Assembly (NCBI GenBank): GCA_039586795.1
Contig: JBDHJS010000062.1
Span: 1-26,212 of the forward strand
Reading direction: 5' to 3'
Origin: Gemmatimonadota bacterium
GTDB taxonomy: Bacteria > Gemmatimonadota > Gemmatimonadetes > Palauibacterales > KS3-K002
Length of the DNA: 26,212 nt
Shown here one piece after another: positions 5,624 through 25,744 of this stretch. The notes under the pieces were generated by a model. It was not told where the DNA came from. It did no database searches and was given only the letters and a program-made list of their open reading frames with translations. Each line of letters begins with the position of its first letter. Positions within the stretch are counted from its first letter, which is position 1. A program made the position numbers and the translations under genes.

Positions 5624-7258
5624 ATGCGCTGGGTACGGATGACCGTCGCTTGTCTCGCGACTCTGGGGCTGCTGTTTGCGCACCCCAACCTGGTACGATC
5701 CCAGAGTGAAGGTCAGCGCCGCACGGTGGAGCCGGCGCCCGATCGAGGGGCGAACGAGGGCGCGGGGCCGTTCGAGCGGCTGATCATCCGCGGGGCGACG
5801 ATGATCGATGGGACTGGCGCGCCAGGGCAGGGGCCGGTGGACATCGTCATTGAAGGCAATCGCATCGTCCAGGTCCGCAACGTCGGCGCGCCGGGTGTGC
5901 CGATCGACGAGGAGCAGCGCCCGCAAAACGCGACGTACGAAGTCGACGCCCACGGGATGTACGTGCTGCCCGGGTTAGTCGACACGCACGCGCACACCGG
6001 CGGCCGCTCACAGGGCACGCCGGCCGAGTACGTCTACAAGCTGTGGCTGGGTCACGGCGTGACGACGATCCGCGATCCGGGTTCGGGGAACGGGATGGAT
6101 TGGACGCTACAGTCCCGAGAGCGCAGCGCGAGCAACGAGATCGTCGCGCCGCGGATCTTCGTTTACGTGCGTCCCGGCGCCGGTTGGGATCGGGGCCCGA
6201 TCGACACGCCCCAGGCGGCACGGGAGTGGGTGCGTTGGGCAGCGGATCAAGGGGTCGATGGCCTGAAGCTGGGCTCCTACGACCCGGAGATCATGGCGGC
6301 GCTCATCGACGAGTCGCAGAGGAGCGGCTTGGGGACGCAGGCGCATCTGGGTCAGATGGGCGTCTCGCGAATGGACGCATTGGATGCGGCGCGACTGGGC
6401 CTAGGTTCGTTGGAGCACTGGTATGGACTGCCGGAGTCGCTGTTCACCGATCGTACCGTCCAGGACTTCCCGTACGACTACAACTACAACGACGAGTACC
6501 ACCGCTTCGGTCAGGCGGGCCGGCTGTGGAAGCAGGCGGCGAAACGGGGCAGCGAGAAGTGGAACCAGGCGATCGAGGAGTACTTGGAGCTGGACTTCGT
6601 ATTCTCGCCGACGATGACGATTTACGAGGCGAGCCGTGACGTGATGCGAGCCCGGGAAGCGGAGTGGCACGACACGTACACGCTGCCGTCGCTCTGGCAG
6701 TTCTACCAGCCCAGCCGGCAGAGTCATGGCTCCTACTGGTTCAACTGGACCACCCAGGACGAGATCGAGTGGAAGCGCAATTTCCAGATCTGGATGAGCT
6801 TCCTCAACGACTACAAGAACGCCGGCGGTCGGGTCGTCACCGGTTCTGACTCCGGGTTCATCTACAAGCTTTACGGGTTCGGCTATATCCGGGAGCTGGA
6901 GCTGCTCCAGGAAGCCGGATTCCACCCACTCGAGGTGCTCCGTTCAGCCACGCTGTACGGAGCGGAGACGCTGCACGAGCCGAAAGGTATGCCGATCGAG
7001 TTCGGGATCATTCGCCCGGGCATGCTGGCCGACCTTGCCATCGTCGAGGAGAACCCGATCGCCGATCTGAAGGTCCTGTACGGGACCGGGACCATCCGGT
7101 TGAACGATGAGACGGGCGAGGTGGAGCGAGTGGGCGGCGTGAAGTGGGTCATCAAAGATGGGATCGTCTACGACGCGAAGCAGCTGCTGGCGGATGTGGC
7201 GCGAATGGTGGAGGAAGCGAAGGCCGAGGCCCAGGTCACGGCGACAGGCGAGAGCTGA
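5624..7258 (+). CDS. Secreted metal-dependent amidohydrolase family protein
   Basis: GGAGGA RBS at 5612 and ATG at 5624; signal peptide; VLPGLVDTHAH, GVTTIRDPG, GLKL, TQAH, SLEHWYG, GSDSG, GMLADLAIV motifs. Confidence 0.9.
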   Translation: MRWVRMTVACLATLGLLFAHPNLVRSQSEGQRRTVEPAPDRGANEGAGPFERLIIRGATMIDGTGAPGQGPVDIVIEGNRIVQVRNVGAPGVPIDEEQRPQNATYEVDAHGMYVLPGLVDTHAHTGGRSQGTPAEYVYKLWLGHGVTTIRDPGSGNGMDWTLQSRERSASNEIVAPRIFVYVRPGAGWDRGPIDTPQAAREWVRWAADQGVDGLKLGSYDPEIMAALIDESQRSGLGTQAHLGQMGVSRMDALDAARLGLGSLEHWYGLPESLFTDRTVQDFPYDYNYNDEYHRFGQAGRLWKQAAKRGSEKWNQAIEEYLELDFVFSPTMTIYEASRDVMRAREAEWHDTYTLPSLWQFYQPSRQSHGSYWFNWTTQDEIEWKRNFQIWMSFLNDYKNAGGRVVTGSDSGFIYKLYGFGYIRELELLQEAGFHPLEVLRSATLYGAETLHEPKGMPIEFGIIRPGMLADLAIVEENPIADLKVLYGTGTIRLNDETGEVERVGGVKWVIKDGIVYDAKQLLADVARMVEEAKAEAQVTATGES

Positions 7259-10428: not shown

Positions 10429-10809
10429 TCACCACCAGATCCAGATCTTCCCGGCGCAAATGAGCCCGCCGATCAATGCGAAGAACATGGAACAGAGCGA
10501 GCCCAGGATGGACGACCAGGCCATCGGTTTGTTCGCCGAGCCGTGGGTAACGTAGAGCTCCCAGTTGGGAAGCATCTTCAGCATGATCCAACCGATCATC
10601 GCCACCGCCGCCCCCGGCACGTAAAACGCCACTATAAGGGTGAAGAAGAGGCGCTCGCTGAGTCCCATGACCCAGCCAGGCACCACGCGGCCCGCCGACT
10701 TCGGGATCTTGAGGGACGCTCGCAGCGCGGCGACGAACCACTCCGTCAGCAGGGCGCCGATCACCAACGCCACTCCGAGCCCCACCGACCAGCGAACCAA
10801 CGTATCCAC
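10429..10809 (-). CDS. Small integral membrane hypothetical protein
   Basis: Three to four hydrophobic segments; GWVMGLSERLFF motif; 15-nt gap to the downstream barrel gene. Confidence 0.65.
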   Translation of the reverse strand: MDTLVRWSVGLGVALVIGALLTEWFVAALRASLKIPKSAGRVVPGWVMGLSERLFFTLIVAFYVPGAAVAMIGWIMLKMLPNWELYVTHGSANKPMAWSSILGSLCSMFFALIGGLICAGKIWIWW

Positions 10810-11236
10810 GCTTCACGTCTCCCGGTTCAGGATGGATGCTGCCTATCGAATACCTCAAATTGAACGCGTGGCGCTGGACTCGACAAGGCGCCTGCCGGAT
10901 CGCGGCCATGCGCAAAGCGACTCGGCGACTCGGCGGATAGTCATAGTTGTTATCTCTATTTGTTGCAATAACTTAGCGCATGTGCGATACTGGCGACCCG
11001 GGAGAAGGGCTGAGGTCGTGGCGATTTCACTTTCGCCGACACAGGACCCTCGGTCGTGGCCGAACCTCACAATCCTGCACACCCGCACAGTCGGTCGTCG
11101 TCGACGACCGGAGCGGATCGATTCATCCAGCGTCCTGGAAAGGCGCGTTTTTTTTGTCGGCGCGTGCGTGCTCCGCCGCGCGCTGCCTGAGGCAACACCC
11201 TAGTCGACCTCAACTGGCCCCAAAGGAGGCATTCCC

Positions 11237-11776
11237 ATGCGTGCCCTGAAATCCCTCGTCGTTATCCTTCTTGCCGTCGCGTTCGCAATCAGCTGCGAGA
11301 CCGCTTCGGAACCAGAGTATGCGATACCTGATATCAACCTCGACCAGAATCCGGTCCGGATGAGTGCGGTCGGGAGTGGACAATCCCATCGTCTGTACTC
11401 TCCCGATGTGTGGCGCACCTTTTCGTTCAATGTCAGGAAGTACCTGGATGACACCGTAGATGGGATGTTCCAGTGGAACAACCATGGGGGCAACTGGGGT
11501 AGCGCCGACGCCATATGCATGCAGATGGACGGAAACAGGGCTTGGATCGGAGGCATCGTCACCCGTCACTCGAATACCGAAAGGATAGGCGAGCCGGCTG
11601 TCTTTCGATTGGAGGACAACGGCCAGGGGGTGAACGCCGTTCCGGACAAGATCAGCTACGTATTGGTTGGTCCAGACGCTGAGAATTACTGCGCTGAACA
11701 GTACTCTTCGCCGTACTGGGTCAGGATAGAAGCGGGGAACGTTGTGCTCAGCGGGCCGACGAAGCCAAAACCCTGA
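11237..11776 (+). CDS. Hypothetical lipoprotein, beta-rich, with a probable disulfide
   Basis: AAGGAGG RBS; lipobox-like AISC; TFSFNV...C...NRAWIGG...EDNGQG...C...GNV pattern. Confidence 0.8.
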   Translation: MRALKSLVVILLAVAFAISCETASEPEYAIPDINLDQNPVRMSAVGSGQSHRLYSPDVWRTFSFNVRKYLDDTVDGMFQWNNHGGNWGSADAICMQMDGNRAWIGGIVTRHSNTERIGEPAVFRLEDNGQGVNAVPDKISYVLVGPDAENYCAEQYSSPYWVRIEAGNVVLSGPTKPKP

Positions 11777-11817
11777 CTAACGTAATCCCTAGATACACAG
11801 GCTGACACGCGTCTTTG

Positions 11818-11848
11818 GGGGCGGTTCCTTCAGGGGGCCGCCCCGTTT
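11818..11848 (+). terminator. Probable intrinsic terminator
   Basis: GGGGCGGTTCC/GGGGCCGCCCC stem followed by GTTT, about 40 nt after the stop codon at 11776. Confidence 0.5.
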
Positions 11849-11871
11849 CAGACCGCAGCGAGGCGCGAACG

Positions 11872-12891
11872 ATGAAGGCGAAAAGAATTACCTATGTTCC
11901 GGGCACGGCATCCCTGGTCAGCCTCGCCGACGGAACGAGGCTGCTGTTCGAGATCGTCCCCGGCATGCTGCGCGTGAGGACACAAGGCAGATTCAGCGCC
12001 CGCGGCAAAGACATCTGGCACTATCGGTTTCCGTTCGCTTTGCGTGAGCGGTACCCGGCGGCCGAGGAAGCGCTGGACATCGCTCTCGATTCGATCGAGA
12101 ACTGTGCGACGCTAGAGGACGTGGAACATCGGCTGGAGTCGCATGCGGCTCCTCGCCTGGCCGTGCTGGCTGTTGAAGGGGCGATCACCGTGGACGTCGG
12201 CGATGTGGCCCCGGTCGTTCCGCCGCCGCAGTTCGGGCAGTTCGAGTCAGGGAGTACTCGAGCTCGGTGGTTGACGATCTTGCTGGGCATCATTGTCGCG
12301 GTCGACTTGATAGCCGTTGTATCGGGCTTGGCGGAGTACATGCTGCTGGACCGGATGCTCCGAGGCGCTTTCGTTTCCAACGCCGAAGTGGCTGCGAACG
12401 ATACCCGCCAGGCATTTGTCGCATTAGCGCAGACGGGGCTGTTTCTCGCTACTGCGATCGTGTTTTGCATGTGGCTACACCGTGCATACCGGAATCTTCC
12501 AACGATTGGAGTGGCAGAAGTGCGTTTCACTCCGGCTTGGGTTGTCGGGTATTTCTTCATTCCGATCGTGAACCTCTTTCGGCCGTACCAGGCCGTGAAA
12601 GAGATCTATATCAAGAGCGACTGTGCCTACGAGCCGGCCGTGGCAGAATCGGCGCCGATCGTCGGATCCTGGTGGGCCGCCTGGCTATTCTATAACTGGT
12701 TCTCCTGGAGAGCCCTCCGCATCAGTCTGACAGCGGGCGATAACATCGGTGATCTAGCGGCCGGAACCGTTCTGTACGTGGTTTCCGACGCCATCAACAT
12801 TCTGGCGGCGATTCTGGCCATCGCGGTAGTCAGAGGGATCAACTGGCGACAGGAAGAGAATTACCGCGGCATCCTGGCGGGGAGCGCTTGA
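11872..12891 (+). CDS. DUF4328-like membrane protein with an N-terminal soluble extension
   Basis: WLHRAYRNL, TPAWVVGYFFIPIVNLFRPYQAVKEI and WWAAW motifs; GAGG RBS. Confidence 0.82.
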   Translation: MKAKRITYVPGTASLVSLADGTRLLFEIVPGMLRVRTQGRFSARGKDIWHYRFPFALRERYPAAEEALDIALDSIENCATLEDVEHRLESHAAPRLAVLAVEGAITVDVGDVAPVVPPPQFGQFESGSTRARWLTILLGIIVAVDLIAVVSGLAEYMLLDRMLRGAFVSNAEVAANDTRQAFVALAQTGLFLATAIVFCMWLHRAYRNLPTIGVAEVRFTPAWVVGYFFIPIVNLFRPYQAVKEIYIKSDCAYEPAVAESAPIVGSWWAAWLFYNWFSWRALRISLTAGDNIGDLAAGTVLYVVSDAINILAAILAIAVVRGINWRQEENYRGILAGSA

Positions 12892-13000
12892 TTCTTGAAA
12901 GCCGTCTAGATCCTCGCTTCTTTTATAGTTCCGCCGTTGTGGTTCGGGGCAGGCAGTGGTTCTGCAATGCTCGCTCTCCTGCTCCTACCTGGCCCGGGTC

Positions 13001-14308
13001 CTAGTTCACGCACACCAAATCAGCCTGCCTTGTGTTGTTGTTCTTCCGCGCTTCCGCAACCAAGCGGTTCGCATCGATCATCACTTTGACGGAGACGGTG
13101 TCAACGATCGACCGAGCTTTGAACGTGTACTGGCGTCGACCCGAAGGTGTGGACAGCAGTCTGTCTGGATCGAGTGCCGTGAGCGTGATCGAGTCCAACG
13201 GCTCATCATCGAACGACATTCTGAGTATCACCGACTCGTTTTCCCAGACTTCCTTCGGCAGATCGGCCGGGCCGCGATTGGCGACGTCGATGGTGACGTG
13301 ACATAAGGTGTCGAGCCTCAGGTTCGAGACTGCCAGGTCGGGCAAGCGGTTGTAGGCAATCTCTTGCAAGACCTTTCGGGTCAGGTTCTCCTTGACTGAC
13401 CAACTGGCGCCGCCGTCGTTCGTGATCGCGATCGTCCCACGCCAGCCCGCGGCGACGAATACACTATCTCGACCCGAGGTCACGGCCATCAAGCGTTGGG
13501 TCGTCCCCGATTCGACGACCGACCACGTCGCGCCAGCGTCTTCCGAACGCGTGACGGTCCCGTCCCAACCCACGGCGACGACGATCGCGCCAGCCGACGC
13601 GACGCCCTCCAGCGTCTTGCGCGTCTGCGTGTTCAATGCCGTCCACGTCTGACCGCCGTCATCAGACTGCGCCGCCTTACCCAGTAACCCCACCGCGACC
13701 CACCGGCTCTCACCCACGAACGCCAGGCCATTCACGTGAGCGCTCATGCCGGTGTTAGTGGTTGTCCAGTTTGCACCGCCATCGTCGGATCGGACGATTA
13801 GCCCTTGTGGGCCGCCGGCGATCCAGGTTCCGCTGCGGTCTGTCGCTACCGAAAGCAGCGCATCGGTGACTCCGGAGTTGGCCGCTTGCCACGTGTGTCC
13901 GCCGTCAGCCGACGTGAGGATCGTGCCTTTTGCACCAACGGCGACAAAATTCCCGTCATCGTCCGACGCTACGCCCTGTAACGTCTCCTCGGTGCCCGAG
14001 GCGATCGTCTCCCAACTCGCGCCGCCATCACTCGAGCGGATAATCGTGCCCCTGGCGCCTACGGCAACGAACCGTCCTCGGTTGTCGGAGATGACGCCGT
14101 TGATGTACGTGTCGATGGGTGTCAGAACCGTCCAGTTCGCGCCGTCGTCCCGTGTGTACAGTGCGGTTCCGTCGCGCCCGACCGCGATATAGTCCGTCAG
14201 GCTCTGGCTGCCGGCGCCCTGCTGTGCGGCTGCGGGTAACGCGACAGTAATCAGGAGCAGGGTCGCGAGACACGCCACCTTCCTCACCATCGGTCCAGTG
14301 GATCGCAT
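13001..14308 (-). CDS. Secreted BNR/Asp-box (Ycf48-like) beta-propeller with a C-terminal CARDB-like domain
   Basis: GGAGG RBS; signal peptide; about seven ~41-aa repeats (VAVG..GTI..S.DGG.TW); LPDLAV...NRGPA...EARKNNN CARDB-like end. Confidence 0.85.
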   Translation of the reverse strand: MRSTGPMVRKVACLATLLLITVALPAAAQQGAGSQSLTDYIAVGRDGTALYTRDDGANWTVLTPIDTYINGVISDNRGRFVAVGARGTIIRSSDGGASWETIASGTEETLQGVASDDDGNFVAVGAKGTILTSADGGHTWQAANSGVTDALLSVATDRSGTWIAGGPQGLIVRSDDGGANWTTTNTGMSAHVNGLAFVGESRWVAVGLLGKAAQSDDGGQTWTALNTQTRKTLEGVASAGAIVVAVGWDGTVTRSEDAGATWSVVESGTTQRLMAVTSGRDSVFVAAGWRGTIAITNDGGASWSVKENLTRKVLQEIAYNRLPDLAVSNLRLDTLCHVTIDVANRGPADLPKEVWENESVILRMSFDDEPLDSITLTALDPDRLLSTPSGRRQYTFKARSIVDTVSVKVMIDANRLVAEARKNNNTRQADLVCVN

Positions 14309-14378
14309 GAGTGTCCTCCGCGCTGGTCGTGGCCAATGCAGGCTGCTTCTTACGTGCAGCACATGCCTTCACTCTTCG

Positions 14379-14406
14379 TACAGGAAAAGCACACGTGTCG
14401 GGATCA
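14379..14406 (-). promoter_or_regulatory. Putative ECF promoter copy 1: TGATCCCGAC-N14-TGTA
   Basis: Shared motif, about 70 nt upstream of the BNR gene. Confidence 0.5.
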
Positions 14407-14462
14407 ACCGTTAGTCAGGTTCATCAGCGCCGCACGTCACGCAGCGAGGCGTTTCTGCCCAG

Positions 14463-14491
14463 CGAGCCCTGCGGTCACTGAAATCTGTAAC
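14463..14491 (+). promoter_or_regulatory. Putative ECF promoter copy 2: CGAGCCCTGC-N13-TGTAAC
   Basis: Shared motif, about 58 nt upstream of the ATG at 14549. Confidence 0.55.
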
Positions 14492-14548
14492 CCCAGTAGA
14501 GCGGTCATACAGCGGCCGAATCTCAGCCTGAACCGACAGTGAGGCCAC

Positions 14549-16195
14549 ATGAAACCTAGGAAAGAGGTGAGACCAGGCGCTTTTGCGTGGGCCGTTGCAG
14601 CAACTTCGCTTCTAGTCATTGGTGCGGCGGGGCTGCAGAGCGACGAGGCCCTCGACTGGTTGGGGGTCACCCGGTGGAGTGGGACTATCCGCGTGGAGGT
14701 TACTCAGGAGAGCAACCTTATGGATTCCGGAAAGGGCGTGCTGATCGCGTCGGCGAGCGGTTCGGTCAACCTGGAGCTGGCAGACGTGCGCGACGGTCCA
14801 AGGCGGGCGATCTGGGTGGGAGACGGCCTGGCGTTCTCGGCCACGCACCAGGCGAATTCGAGCATGGGAAACGGTACGATCGTGTTATCCGAGTCCGGAG
14901 AAGGCGTCTCTCAGGGGGGATCAGTCGAGCTGCTGATCGACGTCGAAAACCTCACGTACACGGTCGACTTCGATGTCGGTGACGGCATCCCGGGCCAGGC
15001 GACGATCGAGTACGTCGGTGGCTTTGGCAACGAGACGAAAGCCGTGGATCTCGGCCTGGATGAACTCGATGTACGCACTGACGATCTCAGGCTTCCCTCA
15101 TCATCACCCGGTGATCTTACCGGGTCTTTCGAGATCGACGTGGGGACGCCTGATGGGTTCGGCATGGGAAGCGGGCGTAAGACCGGTACGCTCAGCTGGA
15201 GCCTGTTGCCTTGCATCGATGCGGAGACACGCAGTTTGGAGATCGATCCCTTCAATTGGGACGCCCTCGTGTTCGATATGAACGGGAGCGAACTCAACCA
15301 GGTTGCTATCGCCAACAACATCAACCCCGAAGAAGCGGAGCCCTCGATCTATTGGACGTTCCCCGAGATCGAGGGTGTCACGCTGACCACGGATCCGGAA
15401 GACGGTCGGGGCAATATGGTCGGCGTAGAGTACCAGGGGATGCCAGAGGACAACGCTGCCTTCGATGTGCAGGATCCGGTAAAGGTGACGCTGCCGGGGT
15501 GCAGCGAAGTGACCGCTGAGTTACCGGCCCGATTCTTCTTCAGCGTTGCAGGAAAGGGCAATCCTGACGACGAAGATGTTCCGAACTGGTTCTACTACTG
15601 GCGACAGACCCCGGCGGGACAGGGGCTGGCCAGATCGGCGGTGCGCTACGAGCAGGGCGAAATGTGCAACATGGAGAATGGAGGAGACGTGTATGGCTTT
15701 TACCCGCCCGGAGCCGACCACATCTATCTCTGTGATGCCGCATCAGGAACGGCGTGGAACAAGGTCACCGGAGAGTACACGGACGGCATCGATACCTACG
15801 CCGTAACGGTCCTCCACGAGCTCGAGCACAAGCGGCACTACGATGACTGGTGGAGAGAATTCGATGAGCAATGGAAGGAGGATAACGGGCGGTCGAGGTT
15901 TGAGGATACGACGGCCTATCGGGCCGACAGAAGAATCGTCGACCGTGACGGGGACGATATACCTGACGACAGGGAAGCGTCGCTGGGGATGGACACGGTC
16001 CCAGACACACACCGCTGCAAGATGACCGACGAGCACTACCTGGCGTGGTTAGCCGAGGGCCTATGGCAGATCGGCGCGGCCGACAAGGAAGACTGGGCGG
16101 CGCCTGGAAAGCAGCACGGGAAAGGTTCGCCGCCGGTCTACCCGGCAGGCGGCCCATTGTGCGGTATCGCGAAGACTGGGAGGCGTCGCGGATGA
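14549..16195 (+). CDS. Exported protein with an HExxH zinc-metallopeptidase-like C-terminal domain
   Basis: N-terminal signal or anchor; beta-rich N-terminal half; TVLHELEHKRH; DRDGDDIPD Ca-binding-like loop; GAGG RBS. Confidence 0.75.
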   Translation: MKPRKEVRPGAFAWAVAATSLLVIGAAGLQSDEALDWLGVTRWSGTIRVEVTQESNLMDSGKGVLIASASGSVNLELADVRDGPRRAIWVGDGLAFSATHQANSSMGNGTIVLSESGEGVSQGGSVELLIDVENLTYTVDFDVGDGIPGQATIEYVGGFGNETKAVDLGLDELDVRTDDLRLPSSSPGDLTGSFEIDVGTPDGFGMGSGRKTGTLSWSLLPCIDAETRSLEIDPFNWDALVFDMNGSELNQVAIANNINPEEAEPSIYWTFPEIEGVTLTTDPEDGRGNMVGVEYQGMPEDNAAFDVQDPVKVTLPGCSEVTAELPARFFFSVAGKGNPDDEDVPNWFYYWRQTPAGQGLARSAVRYEQGEMCNMENGGDVYGFYPPGADHIYLCDAASGTAWNKVTGEYTDGIDTYAVTVLHELEHKRHYDDWWREFDEQWKEDNGRSRFEDTTAYRADRRIVDRDGDDIPDDREASLGMDTVPDTHRCKMTDEHYLAWLAEGLWQIGAADKEDWAAPGKQHGKGSPPVYPAGGPLCGIAKTGRRRG

Positions 16196-16938
16196 ACACG
16201 ATACGTCGGACGCCACTTCTCGTGGTGTGGATGCTAGTGCTGGTCGGACTGGGTTCGGCTGTTGGGTGTGGTGGCGAGAAGCCCGAATCACCGCCGAGTC
16301 AGGAGCCCGACGCATCGCTGCAGGATGCGGTAGCCGAGGTGGAGGGCGCGCTAAGAGATGAAGACGTGAACCGTCGCCTGGCTGTGGTTTGGACGCTCCC
16401 GGAGCGGCGAGACATCGATGCATCCACCAAGGTCAGGCTATTGCTCGACGCATTGGACAGCGAGATCAGCCTCCCCACACAAGCGACGCTTCAATACGGC
16501 ACTTATCTCTCAAGCTCCGAATATCTCAGGTTCGTATATACCCGGTCCCTGGGCAATTCCGAGCCCGCTGGGCTAGAGGTTCTGCGAGAAGCCCTGCGCG
16601 GGGAGTCCGGGGAGCTCCGGGCACGCGCGGCTCTGGCACTCGGGTACGCCGGGGACCCGGCGGTCGTACCGGACTTGCTGGAATTGCTGAGAAGTTCGGA
16701 GATCGGAGACATAAGATCGGACGCCGCGTATCTGCTGGGTGAACTGGGTGGCGAGGAGGCCATTCCCGACCTGCGCCGGGCCATCGCCGCCGACACCTAT
16801 TGGGTCACCGTGAAGAATCTGTCCGGAACGACGAGCGGCTTCTATCCGGTTCGGGCCGAGGCCGCGAGATCGCTGAAGCAGCTGGGGGTGAGCGTCGAGC
16901 TGACCGAGGACGGAGAATACCGCGTCAGCGAAAGGTGA
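16192..16938 (+). CDS. HEAT-repeat lipoprotein
   Basis: ATGA overlap with the upstream stop; GGGAGG RBS; lipobox AVGC; LRARAALALG, IRSDAAYLLG and VRAEAARSL repeats. Confidence 0.85.
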   Translation: MNTIRRTPLLVVWMLVLVGLGSAVGCGGEKPESPPSQEPDASLQDAVAEVEGALRDEDVNRRLAVVWTLPERRDIDASTKVRLLLDALDSEISLPTQATLQYGTYLSSSEYLRFVYTRSLGNSEPAGLEVLREALRGESGELRARAALALGYAGDPAVVPDLLELLRSSEIGDIRSDAAYLLGELGGEEAIPDLRRAIAADTYWVTVKNLSGTTSGFYPVRAEAARSLKQLGVSVELTEDGEYRVSER

Positions 16939-16959
16939 TAGTAAGCGGCGGCTGGCGGG

Positions 16960-16988
16960 TGAGCCCGCCGCTTCCGGATTCCTGTAGT
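16960..16988 (+). promoter_or_regulatory. Putative ECF promoter copy 3: TGAGCCCGCC-N13-TGTAGT
   Basis: Shared motif about 100 nt upstream of the ATG at 17090; overlaps a GC hairpin after the HEAT gene. Confidence 0.5.
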
Positions 16989-17089
16989 TGCAGATGGGTG
17001 GACCGATGTCGGCTGTGCTGACCCTGACGCCGGATACGTTGTCGGCGATCCATCTCGGCGCGAAACACTGATTCAAAGGAGTGTGTCCC

Positions 17090-17947
17090 ATGACGAACAG
17101 ACGCATGACTCTCACCTGGCTCCTCATTCTGATGCTCTGTCCAACCGTCCTCTCAGCGCAGACGTTCGAGGGCACGATCAAGCAACGCACCATTCAGGTG
17201 TCTACTTACATGTTGCAGGAGCTGCTTTGGGCCGAGGAAGAAGAGCCGGAGTACGACAGCGAGGCCGAATACAACGCGGCCGTGGCGAAGAAGCTGTTTG
17301 CGATCCCGATGGCGCGGCTCGAGGCCATGGGACTGGATGGCTCTGCCGACATCAGCCAATCGACGATCTACATCAAGGGATCGCGGATGCGCATGGCAGG
17401 AGAGTCCGAGGACGAGGGGTTCATGTTGTTCGACTTCCAGAACGGCACCTACCAGATAGTCAACCCGCAAGAGCAGACGTACCTGGAGTTCTCGCGGGAC
17501 GAAATGGAGCAACAGAGACGTGCTTCGGAGGACATGCTGGCGCAGGTCGGTGTGAACCCGGAGGAGACAGGGGAGATGTCCGAAGGTGGGGTCAAGGTCC
17601 AGGCTCTGGGCCTGACGGAGCACATCAACGGTTTCCAAGCATCGGCCTATGAAGCCGACGACGGCGAGCGGATAGGTCGCGGGTGGTGTGCCGAAGACGA
17701 AGCGGAGTTGGTGAAGACGTTCGAAGCGTTTGAGACGCAGGCGAGCTTTGATGAAGAGGAGGGTGACGACTTCGAGAGCCTGCTCTGCGAGGGACGCGTG
17801 CCGATCTTGCTCCAGGTATTCGAACCCTTCCTCGGCTCGTACGACGTCACCGAGATTCTGGCGATCGATCGAAGCGGTGTGTCGGATTCTCTGTTCGAGA
17901 TCCCCGCGGGGTTCAAGCGAGTGAGCATGGGAGAGATGTGGCAATGA
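17090..17947 (+). CDS. Secreted DUF4412-like protein
   Basis: AAGGAG RBS; signal peptide ending LSA-Q; FEGTI, YIKGSRMR, G.TEHINGF and SLFEIPAGFK motifs. Confidence 0.78.
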   Translation: MTNRRMTLTWLLILMLCPTVLSAQTFEGTIKQRTIQVSTYMLQELLWAEEEEPEYDSEAEYNAAVAKKLFAIPMARLEAMGLDGSADISQSTIYIKGSRMRMAGESEDEGFMLFDFQNGTYQIVNPQEQTYLEFSRDEMEQQRRASEDMLAQVGVNPEETGEMSEGGVKVQALGLTEHINGFQASAYEADDGERIGRGWCAEDEAELVKTFEAFETQASFDEEEGDDFESLLCEGRVPILLQVFEPFLGSYDVTEILAIDRSGVSDSLFEIPAGFKRVSMGEMWQ

Positions 17948-19082
17948 CGGGTACGACGAAGTTGACCGTGTTACGAAGATGGTGTCTCGTTGTCTCGTGC
18001 GTCGCCGGGCTGGCGACGCCGGGACAGCTCTTCGGCCAATCGGTCGCCGAAGTCTGCGGAGACTCGCCTCTGGAGGCCTCGGGCCTCGAAGTCGGACGCT
18101 GGCTGGCATGGACAGAAGGCGACGCCAGCGGGCTCGAGATGCCGCCCAGCGTGAGCGGGCCGATATTCGAGCGGCACAGCGGGCTGCTCGAGCTGTTCCA
18201 GCAGATCCCCAACCTGCAGCCGCCCTGGGGCGTCGAGGTCCGTCCCAGTGGCGTCATCCGGGGTAGGGAGCGAGTGGGTTCGGGACCTTCCGTCGTTCAC
18301 TCGTCGCTGCTGATCCAGGTCTTTCATCCCACGGTCCAGCAGGCCGGGGAAGCCAGCGCCAGCGTGCGGGTCGACGTCAACACGTTGACGCCTTTGCTGT
18401 ACGACGGTAGCGGCGCCATGATCGAGGACTCGGCCGGGCCGATCTTCATCGAGCCCATCTCGGTGGTCGCCGTATCCACAAGCGGCCGCTGTGGCTTCCG
18501 GTCAGTCAGGAGCGATTCCTAGAGGCGCAGATTGCGGACATTCGACGGATGGCCCGGGAGGCGAACAGCGATATCGGCGGCGCGCAATCCGAGCCGCCCG
18601 CGATCGATGATGAGGCTGTGCAGGCGATGATCCGTCAGCTCCGGACGACCGATCCCGAGGCGGCCGACAAACTGGAGCGAGACATGGCCGCGATGAAGGA
18701 AGAGCTGGCGCGCCAGACCCGGGAAGTCGGGTCCGAAGTCGCCGAGGCGAACAGCGCCGTGGCGAAACTGATCGCCGAGTTGGAGGCGGAGCTGGCAGCC
18801 ATGAGCCCGACGGAGCGGGCACGGCAGGCCTACGTCACCGGCGAAATGTCGGGGTCATCCGTGCTGGCCAAACCGGAAGCGGAAGGTGCCCGCGCACTGG
18901 TGGCCCCCAACCCGGCCTACTTTGACGCCGAGGCCGACCCCTGGGACTTTCAGTTGATCGCCGTTGGGCTGCGCAACGGAGCCGATCATCCGCCCGAGAC
19001 CACGATCATCAGGTCGGTCCGATTAGGGCTGGACTGGGAGGCTGTTGCGAGTTTCCTGAGTGGTGGGCGTCCGCAGCGGTAG
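17944..19082 (+). pseudogene. Exported hypothetical protein split by a frameshift near 18450-18480
   Basis: ATGA coupling to the upstream gene and a signal peptide. The first frame degrades after PIFIEP and stops at 18522. A second frame reads KRPLWLPVSQERFLEAQIADIRR continuously into ORF 18549-19082. Confidence 0.65.
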
Positions 19083-19099
19083 CGTTCGCTACCGCTGCG
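19072..19099. terminator. Perfect 13-bp inverted repeat between convergent genes
   Basis: CGCAGCGGTAGCG-TT-CGCTACCGCTGCG, overlapping the TAG stop; no U tract. Confidence 0.55.
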
Positions 19100-19118
19100 C
19101 GCTCGGTTCGGCGAGGTT

Positions 19119-19643
19119 CTACATCACACCGCAGAAGAAGCTGCCCTCCACGCTGATTCGATAGCCGGGGTCGGACTCGAGCCCGGTACCGGTAAACGTA
19201 ACCCGCACGGCGTCGAATCCGACGTTGTCTTTCCCCGCATCCTCCAGCGTCAGCGTGCCGTCCCCATAGAAGCGATGATCCCGGCCCGCAGCGCGAACCG
19301 ACTGAATCTCGGGAGGCGCGGCGACCATGAACCGAACACCATGAGAGCCCGGACCAGATCCGTCGGCGTCGAGGGAGAAGTTCCAGTCGCCAATCGTATG
19401 CGCCTTGAACCCATCAGAGGTCTCGCTGCACAACACGACTTCCTCCTCCCGGTTCGAAACTTCGACGTCTCCCGTCACAGTGTACTCGATATACGCACCC
19501 GACTTCATGGCGCCCGGTGCCGCAGCGCTGGTGGCCGCCGCCTCAATGTTGCTCTGCGTTTCCTCTGTCCGGGCCTCGTCGTCGCTGCCGGCGCAGCCGA
19601 CGAGAACAAGCAGAGCCAAAGCGGATGGTAGGAGCGCTTTCAT
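19119..19643 (-). CDS. Hypothetical lipoprotein
   Basis: GGAGG RBS; MKALLPSALALLVLVGC lipobox; beta-rich domain with two Cys. Confidence 0.8.
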   Translation of the reverse strand: MKALLPSALALLVLVGCAGSDDEARTEETQSNIEAAATSAAAPGAMKSGAYIEYTVTGDVEVSNREEEVVLCSETSDGFKAHTIGDWNFSLDADGSGPGSHGVRFMVAAPPEIQSVRAAGRDHRFYGDGTLTLEDAGKDNVGFDAVRVTFTGTGLESDPGYRISVEGSFFCGVM

Positions 19644-19699
19644 GATTGTCACCTCCGGTATGGGTTCACTGCTCAGCTGAGCCAGCCGGCGCTCGGGTC

Positions 19700-19728
19700 A
19701 GAGCACCCGTTTCGTGGTTCGCTGTACC
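19700..19728 (+). promoter_or_regulatory. Weak putative ECF promoter copy 5 (autoregulatory): AGAGCACCCG-N13-TGTACC
   Basis: Same GAGC...CTGTA spacing, about 120 nt upstream of the sigma gene. Confidence 0.3.
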
Positions 19729-19738
19729 GCTACCTGGA

Positions 19739-19767
19739 GTTACAGAATTGTGGGCGTGGCGGGCTCA
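19739..19767 (-). promoter_or_regulatory. Putative ECF promoter copy 4: TGAGCCCGCC-N13-TGTAAC
   Basis: First 10 nt identical to copy 3 with the same spacing; about 95 nt upstream of the lipoprotein ATG at 19643. Confidence 0.6.
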
Positions 19768-19848
19768 TCGACCGCTGCCGGCGGCGATGCGCAATGGCGA
19801 GACGAGGAGGAGCGTTTGTCTTGACGATAGGAGGGAGGCGCTCGCAGT

Positions 19849-20427
19849 TTGACCCCTATGCACTCGTCGGAGGAGATCACTGCTCGGCTGCGCGCCGCGC
19901 AACAGGGCGACCGCGAAGCCCTGGACGAGGTTTTTGCGGCGGTCTACGACGAGTTGCGCCGGCGAGCGCATGCCCAACGCCGACGCTGGGTCGGTGACCA
20001 CACGCTGGATACGACGGCACTTGTCCACGAAGCCTACCTCAAACTCGTCAATCAGAGCCAGGCACGGTTCGAGGACCGAGCCCATTTCCTGGGCGTCGCC
20101 TCCAAGGCGATGCGCCACATCCTGGTCAACTACGCGGAGCGAAGACGAGCGGCCAAGCGCGGCGGAGGAACGCCTGACGTCGCGCTGGACGAAGCGAACC
20201 CGGTGGCAGAAGAAGTGGCCGAAGAGATTCTCGTGCTGGACGAAGCGCTGCGGCGTCTCGCAGAAGTGAATGAGCGCCAAGTGCGAGTGGTCGAAGCCCG
20301 GTTCTTTGCCGGGCTGTCGGTCACTGACACCGCGGCCGCATTGGGTACCTCTCCCGCCACGGTGAAGCGCGATTGGAGGCTGGCGAGATCCTGGCTCCAA
20401 CTCGAGATCAAGGCGAATCTCATCTGA
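19849..20427 (+). CDS. ECF sigma factor, kinase-associated type (TIGR02999 / ECF43-like)
   Basis: YDELRRRA, DHTLDTTALVHEAYLKL, AMRHILVNYA, KRGGG and TVKRDWRLARSWL motifs; 3 nt upstream of a Ser/Thr kinase. Start is 19849 or 19858. Confidence 0.92.
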   Translation: MTPMHSSEEITARLRAAQQGDREALDEVFAAVYDELRRRAHAQRRRWVGDHTLDTTALVHEAYLKLVNQSQARFEDRAHFLGVASKAMRHILVNYAERRRAAKRGGGTPDVALDEANPVAEEVAEEILVLDEALRRLAEVNERQVRVVEARFFAGLSVTDTAAALGTSPATVKRDWRLARSWLQLEIKANLI

Positions 20428-20430
20428 CGT

Positions 20431-23022
20431 ATGAAGCCTGAGCGCTGGGAGCGGATAGGTAAGATCTTCGCGGCGGCCCTCGAGCAACCTGTCGAGGCCC
20501 GCCAGCGGTTTGTCGCCGAGGCCTGCGAAGGGGATGGGGACCTCGAGGGACAGGTGACGGCGTTGCTCGATTCGGAAGAGTCTGCCGGTGACTACTTCGC
20601 CGACCTGGCCGACCGTGCGGGCGTCCATGCGGTAGACGACGCAGAGCCGGACGATTTGCAGGGCAAGCGCATCGGCAGTTACCGGCTGGTGCAGCTCATC
20701 GGCCGGGGCGGCATGGGGGCCGTCTACCTGGCCGAGCGCGACGACCAGCAGTTCGAGATGCAAACCGCGCTGAAGCTTCTGCCGGTGGGCCTGGAATCGG
20801 AAGAATCGCGTCTTCGGTTCCTCTCGGAACGACAGATCCTCGCGCGCCTCAAGCATCCCAGCATCGCGCAGCTGCTGGACGGTGGTGTGACCGAAGATGG
20901 AACGCCCTTCTTCGTGATGGAACACGTCGAGGGGGTGCCCATCGATGAGTACTGCGACACGCGCCGACTCGGGATCCCAGAGCGGCTGGAAATCTTTCTT
21001 CACGTATGTGACGCGGTTCAGCACGCCCACCAGAACCTGATTGTGCACCGAGATCTGAAACCCGGCAACATCTTGGTGACGGAAACGGGGGAAGTGAAGC
21101 TTCTGGACTTCGGGATCGCCCGGGTGCTGGCGCCGGGTGAGCACGGCGATGCCGGTTTGACCCAGACCCGGCGCGCCCGTCCGATGACGCTGGCCTACGC
21201 CAGCCCCGAGCAGCTTCGCGGTGCAACGGTTACCACGGCCAGCGACGTGTACGCGCTGGGCATCCTCCTTTACAGGCTGCTTACCGGCCGTCACCCCTAC
21301 GAGCTCCCCTTCGCTTCGCCCAGCGATGCGGAGCGCGTGATCTGCGAGGAGCAGCCGCCTTCGCCCAGTTTGGCGCTCCGCCGGGCCAAGAAGGAAGCCG
21401 CGGCGGAACCGCCCCCGTCGACTTCCGACGCTGAAGGGTCAGCCCAATCACGCCGGTCATCGCTGCAGAAGTTGATCCGTCAGATCTCGGGCGATCTGGA
21501 TACCATCACCATGATGGCTCTGCGCAAGGAGCCCGAGCGGCGTTACACATCGGTGTCGCAATTCGCCGATGACATCCGCCGCTACTTAGGCGGCCTGCCG
21601 GTCAGCGCGCAGAAGGACACGCTCCGCTATCGAGCCTCTCGATTCGTCAGGCGGAACAGGGTGGCGGTCGTCGTGGCCATCGCCTTCGCGGTGATGCTGG
21701 TCGGACTGGTCGGGATCTCGTTGCGTTACGCGGTGACATCGGCGGCGCAATCGCGGGCGGTGGCCCGGGAGGCCGAGACGACCGAGCAGGTCTCGACCTT
21801 CCTTGTCGACCTGTTCAAGATGGCCGATCCGGTGGAGGGATTCGGCGACACGGTTCGTGTGCGAACGGTTCTCGATCGGGGTGCCGAGTACATCGAGGAC
21901 GCATTGCAGGATCAACCCGAGATCCGCGCGAGACTACTGAGAGTGTTGGGTGGAGTCTATGAGAACCTGGGACTGTACGATGAGTCCGTCAGGCTGTACC
22001 AGGAGGCACTGGATCTGCAACGACTCGTGCATGGTGAGTCTCATCTCGAGGTGGCCGAGGGCCTACATAAGCTTGCAGAAGCGGAGCGTTCAAAGCGCAA
22101 CTTCGAGGCAGCTGAGTCTCTGTACGTGGCGGCCCTCGACCTGCGACGGCGCTTGAACGACGACCCGGTGAACATCTCGCACTCTCTGCGTGGTCTGGCG
22201 TTGGCCCTACGGGAGCTGGGCGCGGCAGATTCGGCAGAAGTGTTGGCACGGCAAGCGCTGGAGATCAGGACCGCGGAATTGGGCGCAGAGGATCTCTTGA
22301 CCGTAACCTCGCGCCTGGACCTGGCCTACGTTCTTCGGGCCACCGGCGAGGTTGATTCGGCTGAGGTGTTGTACCTCGGCGCGATCCCGATTCTTCGCAC
22401 CCACGGCGAGCCGGGCCGTCGACTGCTGGGTGGCACGTTCAACAATCTCGGGTTTCTTCACCGCTCGAAGAAGCAGTTCGCCGAGGCGGAACGCTGGTAC
22501 CGGGAGGCGTTGCCGCTGGAACGGGCGCGTGGCCGGGAGCCGCACCTGGTCATTCTGCTCAACAACCTTGCCTCGGTGCTCTATCAGCAGGGTAAATACG
22601 CCGAGGCAGAGGAAGCTCTGCGTGAGCGGCTCGCCGTCTCGGAGGCGCATTGGCCCCCTGGAGACTGGCACATCGGCAACGCGCACGCTGCGTTGGGCAA
22701 TCTATTCATGCTGATAGGAGATACGGCCCAGGCGGAGCCGTTCGTTCGCCAGCGGCTCGCGATCTATGAGGCCGCGTTTGGCTCCGACCACGGATGGACG
22801 GCGCAGGCGAAGGTGGCGCTGGGAAGCTGCCTCGCCGGACTCAACCAGTACACAGAGGCGGAACAGCTGCTCTTGGAAGGCTACCGATCATTGCGCGACA
22901 GATCGGGATTGGAGGATCGATACACACAAGGTGCGCTGACGCTGCTGGTCCGGCTGTACAGAGCGTGGGGGAGGGAGGATGCGGAGAGACAGTATCAGGA
23001 GTTGCTGGAGCCAGCCCGATAG
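20431..23022 (+). CDS. Membrane Ser/Thr (Hanks-type) kinase with C-terminal TPR repeats
   Basis: IGRGGMGAVY, ALK, HRDLKPGNIL, DFG, YASPEQ, GDLDTI...KEPERRY; one TM helix; kinesin-light-chain-like TPRs (NNLG/NNLA). Confidence 0.95.
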   Translation: MKPERWERIGKIFAAALEQPVEARQRFVAEACEGDGDLEGQVTALLDSEESAGDYFADLADRAGVHAVDDAEPDDLQGKRIGSYRLVQLIGRGGMGAVYLAERDDQQFEMQTALKLLPVGLESEESRLRFLSERQILARLKHPSIAQLLDGGVTEDGTPFFVMEHVEGVPIDEYCDTRRLGIPERLEIFLHVCDAVQHAHQNLIVHRDLKPGNILVTETGEVKLLDFGIARVLAPGEHGDAGLTQTRRARPMTLAYASPEQLRGATVTTASDVYALGILLYRLLTGRHPYELPFASPSDAERVICEEQPPSPSLALRRAKKEAAAEPPPSTSDAEGSAQSRRSSLQKLIRQISGDLDTITMMALRKEPERRYTSVSQFADDIRRYLGGLPVSAQKDTLRYRASRFVRRNRVAVVVAIAFAVMLVGLVGISLRYAVTSAAQSRAVAREAETTEQVSTFLVDLFKMADPVEGFGDTVRVRTVLDRGAEYIEDALQDQPEIRARLLRVLGGVYENLGLYDESVRLYQEALDLQRLVHGESHLEVAEGLHKLAEAERSKRNFEAAESLYVAALDLRRRLNDDPVNISHSLRGLALALRELGAADSAEVLARQALEIRTAELGAEDLLTVTSRLDLAYVLRATGEVDSAEVLYLGAIPILRTHGEPGRRLLGGTFNNLGFLHRSKKQFAEAERWYREALPLERARGREPHLVILLNNLASVLYQQGKYAEAEEALRERLAVSEAHWPPGDWHIGNAHAALGNLFMLIGDTAQAEPFVRQRLAIYEAAFGSDHGWTAQAKVALGSCLAGLNQYTEAEQLLLEGYRSLRDRSGLEDRYTQGALTLLVRLYRAWGREDAERQYQELLEPAR

Positions 23023-23109: not shown

Positions 23110-23193
23110 GCCCGGGTGGCGGAATCGGCAGACGCGACGGACTCAAAATCCGTTGGGCTTCGGCTCTTGAGGGTTCGAGTCCCTCCCCGGGCA
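23110..23193 (+). tRNA. tRNA-Leu (anticodon CAA)
   Basis: Acceptor stem GCCCGGG/CCCGGGC plus discriminator A; D arm GGCGGAATCGGCAGACGC; anticodon arm ACGGA-CTCAAAA-TCCGT; long variable arm; T arm GAGGG-TTCGAGT-CCCTC; CCA not encoded. Confidence 0.95.
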
Positions 23194-23199
23194 CTTTTC

Positions 23200-24094: not shown

Positions 24095-25744
24095 ATGCGA
24101 AACCTGATCCACTCATCTGGTCTATTGCTCGTAGGATTCTTGGCTGTTGCGGGCGTCATCATGAAAGCCTCGAACGCGTCCGCCCAGAACCCGGAGATCC
24201 GGTTTCGAGATGGGCCGCTGCCGATAGGCTCGACACCGGGCGTGCGCTACGAGCGACTGGTGATTCGGAACGCCATCGTCGTCAGCGGTCGTGGTACGCC
24301 CGGCTCGAACCGCGCCATGCCGCCCGAGGGCCCCATCGACATCGTCATCGAGGGTAACAAGATCGTCGATATGGTTCCTTTCGATCCGGTGAACGCCGCC
24401 GGCTACGGGGAGGACTTCGGCCGCCCGACGGGCGATCGTGTGATCGACGCGGCGGGGATGTATGTGTTGCCCGGCTTGATCGAGCTACACGCGCACCTGC
24501 GGGGGAACGGTGGCTCCTATGGGCCGGACGCCCTCGGCTATGCCTATCGCCTTTACATCGCCCACGGCGTCACCACGGTACGCGACGCGGGTACCGGCGC
24601 CGGGCTGGAGACGATGACCGAGCAGCGGCGCCTCAGCGAGGCGAACGACATCGTCGCGCCGCGCCTCGTGTTGTGCCAGCGCTGGCCGTTACCCCTGCGG
24701 CATTGGGATGCGGGGAACACGCCGGACGCGGCCCGGGAGATGGTGCGGGAGTTCCAGCGCCAGGGCGCCGACTGCGTGAAGGTGAGCAAGAGTCCCGGGC
24801 ACTACCCCGACGTTCTCGAGGCGATCGTCGCGGAAGCGGACCAGCTGGGCATGCCGGTGATGGTCGACCTGAAGGTCTCCGAGACAGACGCCGTCGTCGC
24901 GTCGAACGCGGGCGTCGCGAGCATCGAGCACTGGTACGGCGTGCCGGATGCGGCGCTCCCCGGCACACAGAACTTCCCCACGGATTACAACTACTGGAAC
25001 GAGCTCGACCGGTTTCGCTGGGCGGGGAACCTGTGGACGGAGGCCAGCCAGTATCCGGAGAAGCTGATCGGCGTGCTGGAGACGATGATCGAGAACGGCA
25101 CGGCGTGGGTGCCGACGATGACGGTGTACGAGAGCGACCGGGACTTCTCGCGTTACATGACGTTGCCGTGGCGCGAGACGCTGATGCACCCGAACGAGGC
25201 GGCGGAATGGGGCGCCGACACGACGTCGCACGGCGGGTACAAGACCGAGTGGAAGACATCGGACGAGATCATGTGGAAGCGCAACTTCCGCCTCTGGATG
25301 GACTACGTGCTCGAGTTCAAGGAGCGCGGCGGGCTCCTCGGCGTCGGAAGCGACGCCGGGGCGATGGGCGGACTGTTCATGATTCGCGAGTTGGAGCTGA
25401 TGCAGGAAGCGGGCATTCACCCCATCGACATCATCAAGCTCGCGACGACGAACGCGGCGCAGGTACTCGGTCGCGACGACCTGTGCGGCGTGCGCGTCGG
25501 CTGCACGGCCGACCTGGCCATCGTGAATGGCAACCCGATCGACAACATGCGAGTGATGTACGGGATGGGTTACGGGTTCTACGGCATCGCGCCGGCGGCG
25601 GAGCAGGCGGACTGGGGCGGTGTGCGCTGGACGATCAAGGACGGAATCGTATTCGACGCCAGAGCGTTGCTGCGCGAGGTGCGTGGTTACGTGGAGCAAG
25701 AGAAGCGCCGCCTGGAGATGGCGGCGGCCGAGCTGGACGGCTGA
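24095..25744 (+). CDS. Secreted amidohydrolase family protein (paralogue of 5624-7258)
   Basis: AGGAGG RBS; signal peptide; VLPGLIELHAH, GVTTVRDAG, SIEHWYG, GSDAG and TIKDGIVFDA motifs. Confidence 0.9.
   Translation: MRNLIHSSGLLLVGFLAVAGVIMKASNASAQNPEIRFRDGPLPIGSTPGVRYERLVIRNAIVVSGRGTPGSNRAMPPEGPIDIVIEGNKIVDMVPFDPVNAAGYGEDFGRPTGDRVIDAAGMYVLPGLIELHAHLRGNGGSYGPDALGYAYRLYIAHGVTTVRDAGTGAGLETMTEQRRLSEANDIVAPRLVLCQRWPLPLRHWDAGNTPDAAREMVREFQRQGADCVKVSKSPGHYPDVLEAIVAEADQLGMPVMVDLKVSETDAVVASNAGVASIEHWYGVPDAALPGTQNFPTDYNYWNELDRFRWAGNLWTEASQYPEKLIGVLETMIENGTAWVPTMTVYESDRDFSRYMTLPWRETLMHPNEAAEWGADTTSHGGYKTEWKTSDEIMWKRNFRLWMDYVLEFKERGGLLGVGSDAGAMGGLFMIRELELMQEAGIHPIDIIKLATTNAAQVLGRDDLCGVRVGCTADLAIVNGNPIDNMRVMYGMGYGFYGIAPAAEQADWGGVRWTIKDGIVFDARALLREVRGYVEQEKRRLEMAAAELDG

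Follow-up and report, generated by a model that had tools for sequence, protein, structure and literature searches.

To our knowledge, two circuits of the ECF43 group of extracytoplasmic function (ECF) sigma factors have been studied in depth, both in Proteobacteria. Here we analyse an ECF43-type sigma factor gene, the receptor kinase gene beside it and a repeated promoter motif in a Gemmatimonadota bacterium (assembly GCA_039586795.1, contig JBDHJS010000062.1; all 26,212 nucleotides of the contig, hereafter the window).

The EcfK/PknS pair of Xanthomonas citri (ECF43; PMC13147305, PDB 9EED) resembles the window pair in having a Sigma70_ECF-type sigma factor, a Thr that replaces the acidic DxxD motif and a kinase gene at position +1; PknS, like the window kinase, has an N-terminal extension, one transmembrane (TM) segment and tetratricopeptide repeats (TPRs). 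The motif differs (DTTA in the window sigma factor, QATE in EcfK), as does the output, which is TagK and the type VI secretion system for EcfK/PknS (PMC13584744), whereas the window locus is without such genes and its candidate targets are local exported proteins. EcfP/PknT of Vibrio parahaemolyticus (ECF43; PMC8999054, PMC8103513) shares with the window pair a predicted phosphosite at the second Thr of an xTTA motif, a sigma factor without an anti-sigma factor and a probable output of the envelope-stress type. However, the STTA of EcfP has no acidic residues whereas the window sigma factor keeps Asp51, and phylum and targets differ. The ECF Hub description of ECF43 (PMC7826278 supplement) gives the same PF07638 domain, kinase at +1, single TM segment and extracytoplasmic TPRs. 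Its text describes the group for Proteobacteria only and predicts GTC (−35) and CAG (−10), whereas the locus studied here has TGA(G/T)CC and CTGT and belongs to a subclade that is probably of Gemmatimonadota. The type of switch is already known; the promoter and regulon appear, from the sequence comparisons below, to be newly mapped.

An ECF43-type sigma factor, its kinase and a repeated motif

We propose, with a probability of about 0.82, that TGA(G/T)CC-N16/17-CTGTA serves as −35/−10 promoter for the neighbouring ECF43-type sigma factor, and that this factor, switched by its kinase via Thr53, would drive four local units encoding exported proteins and lipoproteins. The basis for this proposal is the motif itself, the gene layout, the domain architecture and the conservation of motif and targets across the subclade of the sigma factor. 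By analogy with EcfK/PknS and EcfP/PknT, the TPR receptor kinase would phosphorylate Thr53, and the phosphorylated sigma factor would bind RNA polymerase and transcribe the four units. The two regulators are encoded as follows:

19858–20427, plus strand: ECF43-type sigma factor, 189 aa (PF07638, 164 bits; TIGR02999, 196 bits against a cut-off of 126)
20431–23022, plus strand: Hanks-type receptor kinase, 863 aa (Pfam Pkinase and TPR_12/TPR_10)

The earlier note on this DNA had read the pair as a kinase-activated sigma factor of the ECF43 type, and its sequence features agree. The sigma factor matches PF07638 (Sigma70_ECF) rather than separate r2 and r4 domains, the kinase gene lies at +1 and starts 4 nt after the sigma stop, the kinase combines one TM segment with TPRs predicted to be extracytoplasmic, and the DxxD of region σ2.2 is replaced by the Thr-containing xTTA, here DTTA at residues 51–54 with the first Asp kept. 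No anti-sigma family match was found among the neighbours of the sigma gene, which are the kinase, a divergent lipoprotein and a tRNA-Leu. The group promoter prediction GTC/CAG, which is not a group-defining trait, differs from the TGA(G/T)CC/CTGT seen here. In the kinase, the G-loop, K115, HRD206 and DFG226 are intact, a single hydrophobic TM segment spans about residues 408–436 with the TPR region after it, and the best solved relative is PknS (9EED; E = 4e-52). Thr53 is the predicted phosphosite because it matches both the ECF43 consensus QTTA, in which the phosphosite Thr is equivalent to EcfK T51 (PMC13147305), and the second Thr of STTA that is the EcfP phosphosite (PMC8999054). Kinase activation and sigma dependence would carry over from these two circuits. 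EcfK has, besides, a second phosphosite in its linker (T106). The specificity-loop region reads RFEDRAHF at residues 70–77.

Five copies of the motif lie around these genes. Ranks refer to the 9,344,792 genome positions scored with a hold-out matrix, described in the next section, and +1 to the predicted start:

14379–14406, minus strand: TGATCC-N17-CTGTA, 116 nt before the start of a BNR propeller gene; +1 at about 14369–14370; rank 12
14463–14489, plus strand: CGAGCC-N16-CTGTA, back to back with the BNR promoter; +1 at about 14498–14499; rank 3379
16960–16986, plus strand: TGAGCC-N16-CTGTA, 130 nt before a DUF4412 gene; +1 at about 16996; rank 7
19741–19767, minus strand: TGAGCC-N16-CTGTA, 124 nt before the start of a lipoprotein gene; +1 at about 19731; rank 13
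19700–19726, plus strand: AGAGCA-N16-CTGTA, a weak copy and doubtful autoregulatory site 158 nt before the sigma gene; +1, if the site is real, at about 19736; rank 6941

Coordinates, strands and spacings of these copies were given correctly in the earlier note, and C precedes TGTA in each. Read as hexamer, spacer and CTGT, the spacers measure 17, 16, 16, 16 and 16 nt (14406, 14463, 16960, 19767 and 19700), and in the consensus TGA(G/T)CC-N16/17-CTGT-X the base X is A in all five copies. CGAGCC as −35 recurs in locus L001, and the position of the lipoprotein promoter (19767, minus) relative to the sigma gene matches that in L001, L068 and L069. A loose pattern has five matches in the window, all within 14405–19766 (5.4 kb), among 29 in the 4.68-Mb genome (24 outside the window). 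As the earlier note had observed, the window holds no further intergenic copy; one weaker copy lies inside a DUF4328 gene at 12750. By inspection, the window copies do not fit the LexA-type box CTGT-N8-ACAG.

For placement across the genome we used a simple hexamer gene caller of our own (4005 genes), the strict pattern [TC]GA[GT]CC-N16/17-CTGT and ten control spacers. The strict pattern has 112 matches, of which 11 are promoter-placed, against two to six for the controls. Four of the 11 lie in the window (all CTGTA) and two at the locus of a sigma paralog on contig C68 (CTGTT); the other five, all with T, are at background level. All four promoter-placed CTGTA sites of the genome thus fall in the window, so that, as far as an assembly of 107 contigs can show, the A-type regulon looks local. 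Two TGAGCC-N17-CTGTT sites lie before exported-looking proteins at G000:C19:46439 and C30:2640; they are possible distal targets of the C68 paralog, within the background count.

Comparative tests of motif and sigma factor

With a matrix derived from the window, the motif was found within 450 nt of the sigma gene in seven of nine distinct loci at ≥63% sigma identity (L086 and L071 being the misses) and in three of 80 rows, duplicates included, below 60% identity. A de novo dyad count on eight close loci, with window and paralog left out, placed TGAGC-N17/18-CTGT at the top, in 10 of 16 locus-strands against four to five in 50 dinucleotide shuffles. A hold-out matrix that ignored the base after CTGT was then built from 11 sites in other organisms. 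The two sites of the C68 paralog ranked 1 and 2 and three window copies ranked 7, 12 and 13. This ranking is not fully independent, because the training sites were first located with the window-derived matrix.

The start site offers a further test. A pyrimidine–purine step at the likely start is a promoter criterion (Todor et al., bioRxiv 2020.06.23.168245) and played no part in site selection. Of 20 clade sites, 17 have such a step 9–10 nt downstream, where the start is predicted, more than at any other of 25 offsets (3–13 sites), and all five window sites have it at the two likely start positions. When complete loci are compared, copies of the motif stand before neighbouring units whose gene families are unrelated (CsgG-like, OmpA, outer-membrane beta-barrel, DUF4412, BNR and lipoproteins). 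As a control, 19 other DUF4412 loci were retrieved, of which the script returned 13; a CTGT-type site was present in none of the 12 with upstream sequence. In these comparisons the motif tracks the sigma factor, not the target genes, and it is very likely the −35/−10 promoter that the sigma factor reads. The earlier note had proposed this role and a matrix scan and motif discovery on orthologous loci as checks; both, now run, bear it out.

The motif is specific to the subclade, since it fades below 60% sigma identity. The genome has three such sigma factors: in the window (contig C8), on C68 (about 72–73% identical) and on C55 (49%), and the C55 paralog has no promoter-placed copy. More distant ECF43 sigma factors (L014–L017, L025, L053, L109, L146 and L196) keep TGA(G/T)C(C/G) with a varying −10 (GTGT, TCGT, CCGT or ACGT), a pattern that suggests a family of related promoters. 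No mapping of this motif and no mapped ECF43 promoter was found in the literature reached, which excludes Lima 2022 and Iyer 2020, the primary papers on the two regulons.

Several observations weigh against a kinase-switched promoter of this sigma factor. The ECF Hub prediction of GTC/CAG for proteobacterial ECF43 differs from the window motif, and two of the five copies score weakly (14463, rank 3379; 19700, rank 6941). The fully independent tests are the dyad count and the start step only, given the origin of the hold-out training sites. Of RNA runs sought for the region, one was listed, at a share of 0.05, and none was found to cover it. Because the sigma factor retains Asp51, some kinase-independent activity is also possible.

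One alternative is that the motif is bound by some other regulator (a second ECF sigma factor or a transcription factor) that governs the locus and has the sigma gene as one more target. Some relatives do have a palindromic CCTGTNACAGG at the −10 position, which could suit a dimeric factor. However, the motif follows sigma relatedness across loci that share the sigma factor and kinase only, its fixed orientation, its spacer of 16–17 nt and the step at the start site are those expected of an ECF promoter, and the five promoter-placed matches outside both paralog loci fall within the control range of two to six. We therefore regard another regulator as improbable.

Target genes and their setting

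The four candidate target units comprise seven open reading frames (ORFs): a BNR propeller gene (unit 1), an HExxH protein with a HEAT lipoprotein (unit 2), a DUF4412 protein with a broken gene (unit 3) and a lipoprotein (unit 4).

13001–14290, minus strand: exported BNR/Ycf48-like beta-propeller with a C-terminal CARDB-like domain, 429 aa (Pfam PSII_BNR, BNR and weak CARDB; signal-like N-terminus)
14549–16195, plus strand: exported 548-aa protein, putative zinc metallopeptidase (HELEH; H423, E424, H427)
16192–16938, plus strand: HEAT-repeat lipoprotein (Pfam HEAT_2/HEAT_PBS; lipobox AVGC); its start overlaps the previous stop (ATGA)
17090–17947, plus strand: exported DUF4412 protein (PF14371)
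17944–19082, plus strand: broken gene in two frames (17944–18522 with a signal peptide, 18549–19082 without) for an exported protein of about 390 aa, family unnamed
19119–19643, minus strand: lipoprotein of an unnamed family, 174 aa (lipobox LVGC)

Among 150 other sigma loci, six of the seven ORFs have homologs beside the close-clade sigma genes L001, L002, L070 or L071; outside the close clade there is one weak BNR match (L006). A 68% homolog of the BNR protein, with a motif copy, adjoins sigma L001, and a DUF4412 homolog with the motif adjoins L002. In L002 the kinase gene after the sigma gene (10557–13114) is called in pieces and may be broken; four motif copies persist there. The HEAT lipoprotein has a homolog in none of the 150 loci.

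The 548-aa protein has a beta-rich N-terminus, an Ig-like domain at about residues 225–332 and the HELEH in its C-terminal domain. HExxH is invariant across 11 aligned sequences (the protein and 10 relatives) and is predicted to be helical in both structure models. Fold searches returned Ig-like domain matches only, with the catalytic part embedded in the searched models, and the full-length search was uninformative (TM-score about 0.1). The protein has no Pfam, NCBIfam or PDB sequence match and no usable Atlas match, and its family occurs in none of 144 other genomes of the order; a 26% homolog adjoins sigma L070.

The two frames of the broken gene match a 398-aa homolog beside sigma L071, at 49% identity to residues 18–174 and at 42% to residues 213–397. 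Because the two ORFs, in different frames, match halves of one protein, 18549–19082 is by this alignment a signal-less C-terminal half, with no exported product of its own. The earlier claim that every downstream product is exported thus stands for six of the seven ORFs, by a hydrophobicity and lipobox heuristic, and falls for this one. The homolog of the broken gene matched hypothetical-protein clusters only in the Atlas. One metagenome contig matches 18477–18673 and continues with 75 non-aligning letters, a weak hint of another allele.

The 174-aa lipoprotein has 45 relatives among 1.84 billion representatives. Its domain is fused to DUF4412 in L002 (5077–6321); it also occurs in L071 and, as a remnant, in L001. 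The fusion in L002 suggests that the two domains act together, and matches of about 400 aa among the lipoprotein relatives hint at more DUF4412 fusions. Because the same motif in relatives precedes CsgG-like, OmpA, outer-membrane beta-barrel, DUF4412 and BNR genes, we take an envelope or surface kit for repair or remodelling to be the most likely output.

Whether the sigma gene is itself a target is less clear. In L001, L021, L049, L068 and L069 the sigma gene has its own site 63–68 nt before its start; in the window this position aligns and the motif there has decayed. The copy at 19700 is present, as the earlier note had it, and weak; it points towards the lipoprotein promoter, and 5 nt separate the two predicted starts. 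Because the conserved site has decayed and the remaining copy lies elsewhere, self-activation of the window sigma factor is doubtful.

The decayed site also bears on the possibility that the whole module is decaying, its promoters being relics of an ancestral regulon and its circuit no longer fully used. One target gene is broken, the conserved autoregulatory site has decayed, and the module is patchy, the best sigma matches in two genomes of the same genus (86% and 83% complete) being 51% and 47%. We nevertheless give this reading little chance, as the sigma factor, the kinase catalytic motifs and the five other target ORFs are intact, and all sites have changed to A in concert, which suggests selection.

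The genome is 97.8% complete, and the closest named relatives of the window sigma factor are in Gemmatimonadota metagenome-assembled genomes (77% and 65% identity). Near-identical pieces of the region occur in four metagenome runs examined here, three of which carry a sediment or marine sediment label. GC content is flat across the region (0.59–0.68), with no island signal. The flanking ThuA gene was found in none of five relatives. Scans for sigma-70 promoters (2 against 2.5 expected) and terminators (8 against 8.3) were at chance level, and PADLOC gave weak HEAT matches only on the region. A tRNA-Leu(CAA) lies directly 3′ of the kinase gene (23110–23194); a second ARAGORN call, tRNA-Gly (24249–24326, minus strand), falls within an amidohydrolase gene and is unlikely to be real. 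The region lies between two similar exported proteins of the amidohydrolase family (5624–7258 and 24095–25744; Pfam match for the second). Positions 1–2604 hold a single long open frame, upstream of floA (Pfam), in which a dienelactone-hydrolase-like C-terminal part runs on into an NfeD-like protein (both named by inspection); it is probably two genes with the stop missing between them.

The base after CTGT and the specificity loop

ECF sigma factors read one flipped −10 base through a variable loop, as shown for sigmaE of E. coli and sigmaH of M. tuberculosis, in which loop L3 reads the third base of a GT-X −10 and loop swaps redirect specificity (PMC8103513, PMC6411747). That work used structures and engineered swaps between distant groups, whereas the window suggests, from covariation, a natural shift between close paralogs. 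We mapped the loop to residues 71–76 by position relative to sigmaH numbering, not by structural alignment. In the close clade, sigma factors with an Asn loop (WNDR, WNNR or WNDL) account for 16 sites, each with T or G and none with A. The window (FEDR) has A in five of five sites, the C68 paralog (WNDR) T in two of two, and L068 (FQDR) A, A and T. Orthologous promoters show the same shift: the BNR and lipoprotein promoters have A in the window and G in L001, and in two promoter pairs of L068 and L069 the base is A against G, with an identical 17-nt spacer, and A against T. The C68 pair (L049, G000:C68:99588–101379) and L091 have CTGTT promoters before the sigma gene and the divergent lipoprotein gene, and the same layout occurs in G011. 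In the sigma tree the window groups with L001, L091 and L049 (0.89) and L068 with L069 (0.95). As the two thus sit on separate branches, the change to A would have occurred twice.

On this evidence the base after CTGT might be the flipped base read by the specificity loop, and a change of the loop from W-N, as in the C68 paralog and most relatives with T/G promoters, to F-E might have moved the window sigma factor to A promoters and so insulated it from the C68 paralog. Within the subclade, sequence comparison supports such insulation well, on two events; as a general code it is unproven. A strict rule applied broadly found sites in 44 of 107 loci, with A in three for Glu loops, T in eight and G in eight for Asn, and A in five, T in four and G in two for Gln. 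In a relaxed test allowing one mismatch, 15 Asn loci gave G 10 times (4.6 expected), T six times (3.3) and A once (3.1), and 22 Arg loci gave C 13 times (7.2).

Other results speak against the loop rule. At L071 (FADR) the base is T, and one of the L068 sites is still T. With the prediction fixed beforehand, 68 more loci yielded 43 new sigma factors, 19 of them with any site. A GT-type site was found in two of six Glu loci, both A, and two of eight non-Glu sites were A as well; the two Asn loci had no GT site. The two Glu loci belong to a single clade of 20 leaves whose Tyr and Gln members have A too. In the relaxed test, 27 Glu-loop loci showed no excess of A (six against 5.1 expected), and no motif emerged from a de novo search of these loci.

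These results bear on a third alternative, in which the promoters are real and form a shared pool, the C68 paralog and the window sigma factor both driving both loci and the difference between A and T or G being drift. The −35 and the CTGT core are the same at both loci, the two sigma factors are 72% identical, L068 has both A and T sites, and the relaxed Glu-loop test was negative. However, window sites have A in all five cases and C68 sites T in both, in both the window/L001 and both the L068/L069 pairs the promoters have moved towards A where the loop has changed, and ECF sigma factors are stringent at that base in the cited work. We consider a shared pool unlikely, though a serious competitor.

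We thus retain a promoter read by the adjacent sigma factor, and add, as a tentative extension that we hold to be plausible without favouring it, that a change of two loop residues divides the regulons of close ECF43 paralogs. W-N would read T or G and F-E/Q would admit A; the change would have arisen on two or more occasions, and all target promoters would have followed it; for Gemmatimonadota paralogs, up to 22 per genome, it may be a code that assigns regulons. ECF43 expansions, with 22 sigma matches in G516 (the L004 genome) and up to 12 in G049, are suited to tests of paralog specificity. The window locus itself supplies a well-supported promoter and a conserved set of uncharacterised envelope targets. 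Its two 72%-identical sigma factors, in one genome and with promoters that differ at one base, form a test pair in which kinase gating and paralog insulation can be tested with simple reporters.

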